DNA of 24,000 nt from Promethearchaeota archaeon (GTDB lineage Archaea > Asgardarchaeota > Lokiarchaeia > Sigyniarchaeales > Sigyniarchaeaceae): the NCBI GenBank assembly GCA_041305945.1, contig JBGLND010000001.1, positions 1,427,753 to 1,451,752 on the forward strand, in the 5' to 3' direction. Of the stretch, positions 9,787 through 12,755 are shown piece by piece (position 1 is the stretch's first letter; the number at the start of each line of letters is the position of its first letter). Below the pieces are notes generated by a model. That model was given only the letters and a program-made list of their open reading frames with translations. It was not told the DNA's origin and ran no database searches. Made by a program: the position numbers and the translations under genes.

Positions 9787-10286
9787 GTTGTTAACCTTCT
9801 CGTCATTCTTCAACTTTCTTGCAAGGGCGTGGAAGCATTCCCGGGCGTCTCGATGAATCGTGAAGATAATTGCCTCGTGGAAAACCTTGCAAGTCTTCGT
9901 ACTATGTCTAATTTTTGGCTAATGAGCTTTAAATATTTTTCAAAAAAAAAAACCCTACCCTCAAACCACATTTGTCCGGTAAAATAGTTATTCCCTCTCT
10001 CACCTTTCACGCTGATTTTTAAAATAGGACTATCCAGCGGTGTTTCAAGCAAACAACACCATCATGGTCGAGCTGCGTGATTGGCACGATCATGATCTGG
10101 AATTTCGGGTCGTTTCAACCATTATTTTATTCCAGCATCGTGGCGTCGTGCATGTTAGTGTCGTCGAGGTGGAGGACCTCCAGCCCCGACAAGCCTTCGA
10201 GGAACACGCCGAGGTGGTTGAAATAGTTGCCCGATAACGGGAGCTATTTTTTTTTGTAAGCGTCTATTCTATTCATTAGAAGAATA

Positions 10287-10376
10287 TTGAAATGCCTTGA
10301 AATGCCAAAAATGTTGCTGAAATGCCCAGAAATGCTATAGATTTTACTGAAATGACAAAAGTGTTGTGAAAATGCC
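10287..10376 (+). repeat. 10-bp-phased array of YTGAAATGCC units (6 strong, 3 degenerate) overlapping the E2 promoter and start
   Basis: Units start at 10287 ttgaaatgcc, 10297 ttgaaatgcc, 10307 aaaaatgttg, 10317 ctgaaatgcc, 10327 cagaaatgct, 10337 atagatttta, 10347 ctgaaatgac, 10357 aaaagtgttg and 10367 tgaaaatgcc. The last unit contains the E2 ATG (10372). Unit 6 (TATAGATTTTA) is TATA-like. Confidence 0.8.
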
Positions 10377-10866
10377 GTCCCTCCCACTCCCCATCTGGCA
10401 AGAACGAGTCAAGAACGAGCTCGATGTGCTTCGTAATATGAATGCATTGGTCGAGAGTTCGGTTCAAGATTTTGGCGAAACGATACAATTTCTTATCAAC
10501 GTGCGTGCGAAAGGCTTGGTGAAAGATACGAGCAACAAGCTGGTCCCCATGATGGATCACCAGATCCAGATCGAGATCAACCGGGACTTCCCGTATCCCG
10601 GTGGCATCAAGTTCCTTTGGCGTTCACCTATTTTCCACCCGAATATCGACCCGTACGAGACAGGTTACATTTGCCTCAACGTGCTCAAGAAATGGTCGCA
10701 GCTGAGCGACTTGAGCACCACGGTCAAGGCCCTGACAATGTTGATAACGCACCCGAACCCCGAGGATCCCTTGAACTATCCCACGTGCTTGGAAGCGGCC
10801 AAGTATTTCTTCGAGAACCCGCCATCGGAAGAATCGAACGACGATGACATCCTCGTCATCGATTAA
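10372..10866 (+). CDS. ubiquitin-conjugating enzyme E2 (UBC fold) homologue
   Basis: Landmarks are RVKNELDVL (helix 1), FPYPGGIKFLWRSPIFHPNID with HPN at 10636-10644, catalytic Cys in TGYICLNVL (TGC 10672-10674), KKW and HPNPEDPLN. The ORF track starts at GTG 10366; ATG is at 10372. Confidence 0.85.
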   Translation: MPSLPLPIWQERVKNELDVLRNMNALVESSVQDFGETIQFLINVRAKGLVKDTSNKLVPMMDHQIQIEINRDFPYPGGIKFLWRSPIFHPNIDPYETGYICLNVLKKWSQLSDLSTTVKALTMLITHPNPEDPLNYPTCLEAAKYFFENPPSEESNDDDILVID

Positions 10867-10888
10867 CATTCGTTCGTGTTATATTTCC

Positions 10889-10896
10889 TTTTTTTT
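10889..10896 (+). terminator. oligo-T tract (T8) 22 nt after the E2 stop
   Basis: CCTTTTTTTTCAC read directly; archaeal-type oligo-T termination signal. Confidence 0.45.
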
Positions 10897-11107
10897 CACG
10901 TTCCCTCGCTTGGCACACTGGATAAGCGGCATCTCGTGACGCTCGACCCACGATCGTACCGCATCGAGCTCCCGAGTCGTCGTAGGCGTGTAGATATTTA
11001 TTAATGCTTGTAGCGCAAGAATTTCTTAATATACGCTTGAATTACAACCAACGATTATGGCATTGAACATTGTTGGAATACACCACGAGAAACGAGCATG
11101 AGGCATC

Positions 11108-12376
11108 ATGGGAACGTTCGTAGCATATGTCCTGATGGGCGAGGAAGACTTCGTACCCACCAATAAATTAGAAGAGGATCAAGTCGCGTTCATCATTGAC
11201 ATGGAAAAGAAGATCATCTATGCTTGGCACGGGCGCAATTCGAGCAAGCTCCAGCAATACAAGTGCGGGACCAACGCCACGAAATTGAAGTCGAAGCTGC
11301 ACTACTATGGCTTCGGCACGGAGATTATCAAGCAAGGTGGCGAGCCTGCCGAGGTGGCCGTGGAGGTCGAGGAGTTGCTCGCAGGGAAGGGCGAGATACC
11401 GTCCAAGATAAAGGAGACGATCACCGAGGAAGCAATCAAGACGGGCAAGATCGCTGCACCATCATCCGTCGCGGTGCAACCGGAACCAGAGGAACACGTG
11501 GTGCGGCCATCATCTCGAGCAGAACCCCCGCAACCAAGCAGCCTCAAGCCATCCCTTGCCGAAATCGCACGCGTCGAGGCAGAACGCCGGGCCACGATGA
11601 CCACGGAATTGAAACGAGCCGAAGACCTTGCACGGGTCAAGGAAGACAATGAACGACGTGCAAGGGGCGAGGCCCGCGAGAAAGAAGCCGAGGCCTTGTT
11701 GCTGAAACGCAAGCTGGATGAAGAAACGCGGTTCTTGGAAGCTGAATCACGGAAGACCGAGCAGCTCGAGGAAAAATTGAAACAGGAATCGCTCGAGCGC
11801 CATCGCCTCCAGAAATTGATGGAGAAAGAACGGGAGGACATGCGCAAGGAGTACGAGACCCGCATACAGGACGAGATCAAGGCGCGCGTTGACGAGGAAC
11901 AAAAGAAAACCTTGGAATTGCAAGAAGAACTCGATCGCGTGAAGAAAGAACGGGACGATGCCATCAAGTCAAAGGAGCGGGAGATCGAAGAGACCAAGAA
12001 GGACATCGAGACCCTCATGATGGACAAGGACCAGCAGCTCAAGGAACAGATCGATAAGGAGCGGCAAGAGCTGGCGTTGGCCAAGGATGAAGAGAAGGAA
12101 GCCATCAAGGCTCGATATGCCAAGGAAAAGTCGGAGCTCGAATCAAAGGTTAGCGACGAGCAGAAGTCGTTGGAGGCAAAGCTCGAGCAAGAACGCCAGA
12201 TGCGACTGTCCTTGCTCGACCAGGCCTCCCGCGCAGCGCAAGAAGCGGTCGAGCGCGAGGAAAAGGTTCGCGAGGAGGTCGAGAGCAGCGTCCGTGCAGA
12301 GATGGATGCAAAGCTTGCCGCCGAGCACGTTGAAAAGGAACGCCTCGAGAAACGGCGATGTGCGGCCCGCGCATGA
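11108..12376 (+). CDS. gelsolin-like domain protein with Pro/Ser linker and ~260-aa E/K/R-rich coiled coil
   Basis: The N-terminal ~95 aa read DQVAFIIDMEKKIIYAWHGRNSSKLQQYKCGTNATKL...EIIKQGGEPAEV (gelsolin-repeat pattern, paralogous to 9055-9786). The linker is APSSVAVQPEPEE..PPQPSSLKPS. From ~11555 to ~12352 there is an uninterrupted charged heptad-like sequence (EAERRATMTTELKRAEDLARVKEDNERRARGE...EKERLEK). Confidence 0.7.
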   Translation: MGTFVAYVLMGEEDFVPTNKLEEDQVAFIIDMEKKIIYAWHGRNSSKLQQYKCGTNATKLKSKLHYYGFGTEIIKQGGEPAEVAVEVEELLAGKGEIPSKIKETITEEAIKTGKIAAPSSVAVQPEPEEHVVRPSSRAEPPQPSSLKPSLAEIARVEAERRATMTTELKRAEDLARVKEDNERRARGEAREKEAEALLLKRKLDEETRFLEAESRKTEQLEEKLKQESLERHRLQKLMEKEREDMRKEYETRIQDEIKARVDEEQKKTLELQEELDRVKKERDDAIKSKEREIEETKKDIETLMMDKDQQLKEQIDKERQELALAKDEEKEAIKARYAKEKSELESKVSDEQKSLEAKLEQERQMRLSLLDQASRAAQEAVEREEKVREEVESSVRAEMDAKLAAEHVEKERLEKRRCAARA

Positions 12377-12695
12377 ACCCGCGGTGCGCGGCGATGTTCC
12401 GCAGTTTCAAGATGATGTCGGTGCTAGGCACGTCGCGCGGGCATCGTTCTTGGCACGTGAAGCACGTGGAGCACAGCCACAGCAAGTCAGAATTCAAGAG
12501 CTCGTCATCGAGCCCGATCATGGCCTCGCGGATGAGTTCGCGTGTCCGCATTGCCGTGCGACGCCCGCTGGGGCAGCCGCCCGAGCACGTGCCGCATTGA
12601 TAACATGACTTGAACCGTTCATACATCTCGTCTTCGACGATTTCTTCCACGAGTCTTCTATCAATTTTCTTGATGATTTGTGGGTTTAATGCCAT
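12150..12695 (-). CDS. hdrC: HdrC-like 4Fe-4S dicluster protein with aberrant (non-homologous) C-terminal third
   Basis: Two cluster motifs, CYQCGTCSGGCPSGRRT and LWLCSTCFTCQERCPR, then LRNIAAHRGFM..PH, all typical of heterodisulfide reductase subunit C. After about residue 119 (~12348) the ORF is an R/P/A-rich tail lying wholly antisense to the coiled-coil CDS. ATG at 12695 (GTG at 12704 in the track). Confidence 0.6.
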   Translation of the reverse strand: MALNPQIIKKIDRRLVEEIVEDEMYERFKSCYQCGTCSGGCPSGRRTAMRTRELIREAMIGLDDELLNSDLLWLCSTCFTCQERCPRDVPSTDIILKLRNIAAHRGFMRGPHIAVSRGVPFQRARRQALHPSLHGRCSRPPREPFPRARPLLALRGRPGRARTVASGVLARALPPTTSARR

Positions 12696-12755
12696 GAGAT
12701 TCACTCTTTTTTTTATCTTAACGTGTTACGTGCTGTTCCTTTCTTGGTATCATTA

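Follow-up and report, generated by a model that had tools for sequence, protein, structure and literature searches.

The closest described systems are the operator clusters bound by archaeal regulators of the Lrp type, in which multiple imperfect sites lie on one face of the helix with their centres two or three turns apart (PMC2995911) and in which approximately 100 bp are wrapped by three dimers (PMC2995911); the Lrp boxes themselves are 13-15-bp semi-palindromes with an AT-rich centre (review, PMC2995911). A further described arrangement is the archaeal nucleosome code, i.e. 10-bp WW repeats with SS offset by approximately 5 bp; archaeal nucleosomes disfavour A/T-only pentamers, and promoters are as a rule depleted of nucleosomes (PMC3691661).

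The window, i.e. the whole stretch of 24,000 nucleotides that was analysed, belongs to a genome of 3.7 Mb that is a single sequence with 53.7% G+C and an estimated completeness of 63.6%. It contains an E2-like gene that is flanked by two gelsolin-domain genes; hdrC-like and fwdA-like (formylmethanofuran-dehydrogenase-like) genes are also near. By this gene content, the genome is that of an Asgard archaeon. To our knowledge, the control of eukaryote-like genes in Asgard archaea is almost entirely uncharted, and we know of no cis-regulatory element described for an Asgard gene of the ubiquitin system. The E2 gene is preceded by an array of 10-bp slots that is genuine, unique in the genome and partly conserved, and that would most likely be a docking platform for a regulatory protein. 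The features of the locus are the following:

10230-10255, plus strand: short hairpin CCCG-ATAA-CGGG, then AGCTA and a run of nine T, read from the sequence
10265-10286, no strand: palindrome TATTCT-N10-AGAATA immediately 5' of the array, from the sequence and the alignment with the relative
10287-10376, plus strand: array of nine 10-bp slots with the pattern B B A B B T B A B, of which the last B supplies the ATG of E2
10298-10326, plus strand: first copy of the B-A-B module, 5' of the TATA-like element; reference copy of the repeat family
10328-10356, plus strand: second copy of the module, 30 bp after the first and 76% identical, with the TATA-like element as its middle
10336-10346 (-36 to -26 from the ATG), plus strand: TATA-like element TATAGATTTTA, at the position of the genome-wide TATA peak
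10348-10376, plus strand: third copy of the module, 20 bp after the second and 83% identical, covering both the start codon and the inferred start of transcription
10372-10866, plus strand: E2-like gene (UQ_con), 164 amino acids, Pfam PF00179 (E = 7e-15), supported by orthologue and start-codon alignment

The B slots follow the consensus YWGAAATGMY and are present as six in-phase copies at offsets 0, 10, 30, 40, 60 and 80, while slots 3 and 8 (A) carry a second repeat type, AAAARTGTTG, and slot 6 (T) is a separate AT-rich, TATA-like element. The units read:

U1 and U2: TTGAAATGCC
U3: AAAAATGTTG
U4: CTGAAATGCC
U5: CAGAAATGCT
U6: ATAGATTTTA
U7: CTGAAATGAC
U8: AAAAGTGTTG
U9: TGAAAATGCC

Units 1, 2, 4, 5, 7 and 9 have at most two mismatches to YTGAAATGCC, and the ATGs of these six B units (at 10292, 10302, 10322, 10332, 10352 and 10372) are spaced by multiples of 10; U3 and U8 are identical at 9/10 positions, and the two adjacent units 1 and 2 are the only adjacent perfect units. 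Because U3 and U8 are a second repeat type and U6 is a separate element, the self-identity of the array is low at a lag of 10 (0.375); it is 0.50 at a lag of 20 and 0.60 at a lag of 30, and TRF detects a 30-bp period. By repeat finding, the actual grammar consists of three copies of a 29-nt B-A-B module, with starts at 10298, 10328 and 10348 and thus a spacing of 30 and then 20 bp. An earlier note on this DNA had described nine copies of one 10-mer, six of them near-identical and three degenerate. The coordinates, the strict 10-bp register and the six near-identical copies stand, but the composite B-A-B module had been missed and the three supposedly degenerate copies are the second repeat type and the separate element. 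Similarly, the statement that each unit carries an ATG is true except for U6, which has none, and U8, which has GTG; that no unit ATG is in frame with E2 was stated correctly.

A second, independent NCBI assembly of the same organism (GCA_041305845.1, identified by exact-protein look-up) carries the identical array, and we conclude that the array is not an assembly artefact; because organism and array are the same, this assembly is uninformative on polymorphism. Its contig JBFYKP010000179.1 is a 99.96% match to positions 9968-12351 of the window and, past 12351, runs on for 4.5 kb without a match anywhere in this genome, and these 4.5 kb comprise the remainder of a 1059-aa gene, a GATase/SIS gene and a thiolase. 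Because the other assembly continues past 12351 with the rest of the 1059-aa gene, the 422-aa gelsolin/coiled-coil ORF downstream of E2 (11108-12376, plus strand) is probably a truncated form of that gene, and its "tail-to-tail collision" with hdrC (12150-12704, minus strand) at 12351-12352 probably reflects an assembly join, if not a rearrangement. On the upstream side, the hairpin and T run at 10230-10255 are terminator-like and form the upstream limit of the E2 control region; a scan for bacterial sigma-70 promoters and intrinsic terminators is uninformative for an archaeon. A putative 65-aa ORF (10040-10237, plus strand) ends in this hairpin and T run, just 5' of the control region; it is uncalled in the other assembly, and the relative described below has an unrelated ORF at that position.

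Using a threshold of at least four RAAATG[CTA] matches per 100 bp, the array, which holds seven, is the sole cluster on both strands of the 3.7-Mb genome. No other in-phase pair of B-like units was found in the non-coding DNA of the genome. Moreover, the genome-wide motif count suggested in the earlier note, which we ran for the B unit, the A+B junction and the 20-mer with exact and mismatch-tolerant matching, revealed no enrichment in the genome or in non-coding and upstream DNA and, therefore, no regulon. Nearly all arrays detected genome-wide by TRF have periods that are multiples of three, i.e. are coding repeats, and two non-coding arrays with a period of 10 and at least four copies are present in the genome. 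Comparison of the most conserved 20 nt with 185,579 species genomes gave 12 matches, which were in unrelated bacteria and at chance level, and identified no further relatives. The array does not fit a phase-variable simple-sequence contingency locus, in which a long run of perfect units differs in copy number between close genomes: it has only two perfect adjacent units, the second assembly shows no difference in length or sequence, and the relative has the same total length.

Other repeats were observed in the genome. A strongly phased array at 1771479-1771539 (L034, 2980-3045) consists of three copies of AAATAAACTGAAAAAT-like units with a 20-bp period, has the fifth-highest A-tract periodicity in the genome, shares the word CTGAAA with the E2 array and sits in a stretch of approximately 1 kb without an ORF of at least 70 aa. 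At 3302423-3302508, approximately six copies of GTGAAGAATTGCG with an irregular spacing of 13-19 bp resemble another putative protein-binding array. Finally, a 10-bp array with ATG-bearing repeats is present at 3661495; as a parallel case at a gene start it was dropped, its coding context being unclear.

Metagenome and protein searches yielded one informative lineage (P0001), which is represented by two metagenome contigs of the same sequence (L028 and L029) and is the closest relative, with an E2 that is 90% identical; the closest public E2 (90% identity) is labelled Candidatus Sigynarchaeota. In L028, the module is present at 204, 234 and 254, i.e. with the same 30/20 spacing, and homology with the relative begins at the T run (T8 there). 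The identities between the two species are:

T run to ATG, 117 nt in both species, no indel: 84/117
Units 3-9, same register: 52/65 (80%)
Four-fold degenerate sites: 34/60 (57%)
Third positions of conserved residues: 100/143 (70%)
Spacer downstream of E2, two indels: 137/213 (64%)
DNA 5' of the T run, unrelated: 30/141 (21%)

Thus, units 3-9 have changed less than four-fold sites (p = 0.007) and than the spacer 3' of E2 (p = 0.02), with no significant excess of identity over all third positions of conserved residues (80% vs 70%, p = 0.18). In the three B units with an orthologous counterpart, 0/15 positions of the GAAAT core have changed compared to 5/15 in the flanks (p = 0.04), and paralogous B units within each genome are identical at 50/60 positions (83%); these comparisons of B units are few and not independent. 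That the B units are 50/60 alike although the duplication predates the split of the two species points to constraint or concerted evolution. The stretch 10256-10286 is also well conserved, the right arm of the palindrome being degraded in the relative, and the ATGs of units 3 and 5 read ATA there. By contrast, units 1 and 2 are not conserved (3/10 and 4/10), and an unrelated near-palindrome takes their place; these two units are perfect copies in the window and lack a counterpart in the relative, so that the upstream end of the array is still evolving.

Conservation upstream of orthologous E2 genes, proposed earlier as a check, is thus found for units 3-9 in one close relative, but the array is absent upstream of orthologues with 72-80% E2 identity. 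An orthologue with 75% identity (L009) has GCTGAAAT on one side of a TATA-like stretch and its inverse on the other, which is only a weak cross-genus hint. In L009, the codon aligned to the E2 start (at approximately 1498) is ACG with a Shine-Dalgarno-like GAGGTGG 6-7 nt 5' of it, and this ACG is either a non-canonical start or a sequence error. In a low-GC sister family (L010-L020), E2 lies directly 3' of an ORF with the conserved ending ...CW(T/I)CS(Y)KK, apparently in an operon, whereas in the family of the window E2 stands alone with its own promoter. Direct repeats of unrelated sequence just 5' of E2 were observed in three sequences from other genera: TCCRAATCTGTGG in two copies 39 bp apart (L021, 1423-1474), a 20-mer in three copies spaced 46 and 30 bp (L022, 507-602) and GAARYGCATTTTTAT in two copies 19 bp apart (L023, 1433-1466), observations that stand without a control frequency from other spacers.

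Core promoters of leaderless archaeal mRNAs lack a Shine-Dalgarno motif and carry an AT-rich TATA element approximately 24-32 nt 5' of the ATG. The ATG at 10372 is the true start of E2; the M-P-x-L-P N terminus is kept in most orthologues compared, and an in-frame GTG at 10366, six bases 5' of the ATG, reads GTT in the relative. From crude gene calls (2620 non-overlapping ORFs), we obtained 1431 starts with at least 100 nt of free upstream DNA. Among these starts, TATA-like hexamers peak sharply at -30 to -28 (65 vs approximately 22-38 in adjacent bins) and a separate Shine-Dalgarno-like class peaks at -18 to -10. Moreover, many individual genes have a clean W8 box at approximately -31, no Shine-Dalgarno motif and C at -1. 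The TATA peak at approximately -30 together with these genes indicates that leaderless mRNAs are common in the genome. Genome-wide, C at -1 is present in 45-49% of the starts with TATA at -30, and the listed examples of this class are without an evident Shine-Dalgarno motif, a sequence signature of widespread leaderless mRNAs in this Asgard lineage. EM motif discovery for BRE and TATA elements on the crude gene calls returned only noise.

The E2 gene has ATTTTA at -31 to -26 within slot 6 and neither GGAGG nor GGTG within -20 to -1, and the relative has the TATA-like AAAATATT at -34 to -27; in both species, therefore, the upstream region combines the TATA distance of a leaderless promoter with the lack of a Shine-Dalgarno motif. 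Because TATA-like elements in the genome peak approximately 30 nt before starts, a leaderless E2 mRNA transcribed from the TATA of unit 6 is plausible. The earlier suggestions of unit 6 as the best TATA candidate and of a leaderless or near-leaderless mRNA are both plausible in this light and fit the promoter geometry of the genome, and the box of unit 6 has a counterpart in the relative. Folding of the RNA from 10256-10400 gave a structure less stable than shuffles (z = +1.17), which rules out a structured leader or riboswitch, and Rfam and tRNA scans of the window gave no match.

The AA/TT/AT power of the array at a period of 10.0 bp is 15.5 compared to a genome mean of 3.7 (sd 2.05), and the claim that all copies lie on one face of the helix is borne out for the good copies. 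In A-tract phasing, the array ranks 1st of the 1431 upstream regions and 6th among distinct loci of the genome, and the relative keeps a high 10-bp periodicity (12.0). In a wedge model, the ratio of end-to-end distance to contour length is 0.83 compared to 0.974 (sd 0.020) in random windows, a number that is approximate. In the same model, no more than 0.05% of random genome windows reach the curvature predicted for the array; together with A-tracts phased at the helical period, this agrees with the intrinsic curvature that had been proposed. WW and SS dinucleotides are offset by 4.3 bp in the array, with a combined amplitude in the top 0.1% of windows, but the array is only at approximately the 259th locus. 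The array also holds A/T-only pentamers (AAAAA in U3 and ATTTT in U6), at odds with histone positioning. The genome encodes four histone-fold genes.

We consider it possible, with a probability of roughly 0.4, that the array is a locus-specific cluster of operator sites that lies in helical phase over the TATA element and the transcription start and is bound by a putative oligomerising protein; the regulatory function, the binding of a protein, the sign of regulation and the transcription start are all inferred from the sequence. The promoter region of E2 would have arisen when a 20-30-bp module was duplicated in tandem long ago, and the duplicated modules would have been retained as helically phased putative protein-binding sites specific to this locus. 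With module starts 30 and 20 bp apart, i.e. three and two helical turns, the first module would precede the TATA-like element, the second would cover it and the third would span the transcription start and the ATG of a leaderless mRNA, and the extra B units would lengthen the cluster upstream. A putative oligomerising DNA-binding protein with an Lrp-like site grammar could then bind cooperatively on one face of DNA that is already curved and, by covering or wrapping the TATA element and the start site, would set the expression of E2; the simplest sign would be that of a repressor acting by occlusion or wrapping. We favour this operator cluster because its grammar matches that of archaeal Lrp-type clusters (PMC2995911). 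The anatomy, the uniqueness, the collinear conservation, the 30/20 spacing shared with the relative, the constrained GAAAT core, the persisting likeness of paralogous B units, the presence of a leaderless promoter class in the genome, the phasing and the lack of structured RNA count in its favour, as does, weakly, the hint from L009. Against it, there is no adjacent regulator gene, the nearest of seven AsnC-domain matches in the genome being approximately 108 kb away. Because the motif is nowhere else in phase and not enriched in promoters, this reading would require a regulator dedicated to a single site. Moreover, typical dimeric regulators of archaea favour palindromes, whereas the B units are direct repeats. 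Finally, there is only one informative relative, conservation is not significantly above that of all third positions of conserved residues, units 1 and 2 are unconserved, distant orthologues are without the array, and any core promoter is expected to show some conservation.

A different account, doubtful but to be taken seriously, is that a slippage-type tandem duplication persists here as a neutral relic, that function resides in one ordinary TATA element and start, and that the phasing is an automatic by-product of duplication in 10- and 30-bp units. Tandem duplication gives exact phasing for free, the perfect units 1 and 2 that are missing from the relative suggest a dynamic array, the motif is used nowhere else, orthologues of 72-80% identity are without the array, and conservation is not above that of all synonymous third positions. 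However, units 3-9 keep their register, spacing and 80% identity while four-fold sites are at 57% and the downstream spacer is at 64% with indels; in each of the two genomes, paralogous units still share 83% identity although they were duplicated long ago; the GAAAT core is spared by the changes; and period-10 non-coding arrays are very rare here (two with at least four copies). If the array were only a relic of duplication, it would be of little consequence. It is rather unlikely that the shape of the DNA is itself the function, i.e. that the phased A-tracts give 90 bp of strongly curved or readily wrapped DNA (three 30-bp steps) that position histones or another architectural protein over the promoter, or that curvature itself acts, with no need of a sequence-specific regulator. 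The DNA step per histone dimer is 30 bp, as is the super-period of the array, and the top ranks for phasing (1st of 1431 upstream regions, 6th genome-wide) and curvature (top 0.05% in the wedge model, an approximate figure), the periodicity kept in the relative (12.0) and the four histone-fold genes fit such a function, as does the 4.3-bp phase difference of WW and SS, which resembles the archaeal nucleosome code (PMC3691661). Yet on the WW/SS measure the array is only at approximately the 259th locus, it contains the disfavoured pentamers AAAAA and ATTTT and lies on a promoter, where nucleosomes are normally depleted (PMC3691661), and shape alone does not need near-identical 10-mers with an invariant GAAAT core. 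More specifically, but highly improbably, the array could be a histone-wrapping element in which three 30-bp steps place a histone hexamer over the TATA element and start of E2, beside a histone-excluding poly(dT); if true, a close relative of the eukaryotic ancestor would possess a eukaryote-like promoter that is gated by a nucleosome.

Two further readings concern transcription and translation starts. In the first, which is improbable, the array would consist of tandem core promoters in which A units serve as TATA-like elements and the preceding B units contribute a GAAA-type BRE, so that two or three pre-initiation complexes use alternative starts. The A units are AT-rich (AAAAATATTG in the relative) and lie 3' of GAAA-containing B units, and GAAA is the commonest 4-mer just 5' of TATA boxes in the genome, if weakly (29/304 vs 18-21 in control windows). 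However, this BRE enrichment is marginal, the A units of the window include G (ATGTTG, GTGTTG) and make poor TATA boxes, and the box of unit 6 alone is at the preferred distance of -30 from the ATG; a start directed by unit 3 would yield a leader with out-of-frame AUGs and one directed by unit 8 would lie inside the gene. Least probable of all is a long 5' leader that starts near 10265-10286 and in which repeated out-of-frame AUGs, with mini-ORFs of 2-15 codons, control translation of E2. Six out-of-frame ATGs do lie 5' of the start, and the well-conserved stretch 10256-10286 could hold a promoter. This reading is weakened because the upstream ATGs are not conserved (ATA in units 3 and 5 of the relative); moreover, the E2 ATG is not preceded by a Shine-Dalgarno motif, the RNA folds less stably than shuffles (z = +1.17), and a TATA-like element is at a leaderless distance in both species.

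The array is a compact, partly conserved 90-bp bait for DNA pull-down, footprinting and curvature assays and offers a route to how an orphan E2 is switched. In addition, the analysis adds sequence-level support that leaderless promoters with TATA at approximately -30 are common in this lineage.

In comparison with known systems, the array resembles Lrp/AsnC clusters such as the Ss-LrpB control region, FL11 and Ptr2 in having imperfect sites on one face and two to three turns apart, and in an extent of approximately 90-100 bp that overlaps the promoter and is compatible with cooperative binding and wrapping. Several sites are clustered (three modules and extra units in 90 bp), and the 30/20 spacing is present in both species. 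It differs from these clusters in that its best-conserved units are direct repeats, its target is an E2 gene, and neither an adjacent Lrp gene nor an autoregulated or other cognate regulator gene is found at or near the locus. By eye, the A units and their flanks (GCAAAAATATTGC in the relative) pair at 4-5/6 arm positions, and no inverted repeat was reported by repeat finding. Because the units are direct repeats and there is neither a nearby regulator gene nor a regulon, we do not claim membership of the Lrp system. The array is also similar to curved promoter DNA with phased A-tracts, having AAAT or AAAA every 10 bp and a predicted curvature that is extreme for the genome; unlike such DNA, it has near-identical 10-mers with an invariant core beyond what bending needs, and it lies over the TATA element and start site rather than 5' of them. 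Nucleosome positioning sequences of archaea and eukaryotes include TATAAACGCC-type repeats. As in such sequences, A/T-rich and GCC-type parts alternate every 10 bp in the array, its 90 bp equal three 30-bp steps and the genome has histone genes; unlike them, the array contains A/T-only pentamers, ranks approximately 259th on WW/SS and sits on a promoter (PMC3691661). Finally, plasmid iterons and OmpR-PhoB-type boxes are likewise helically phased direct repeats beside or overlapping the promoter of an adjacent gene, but the units of the array are shorter (10 bp) and its locus is without a replication, response-regulator gene or mobile-element context. In total, the array belongs to a familiar class, that of helically phased promoter and operator arrays.
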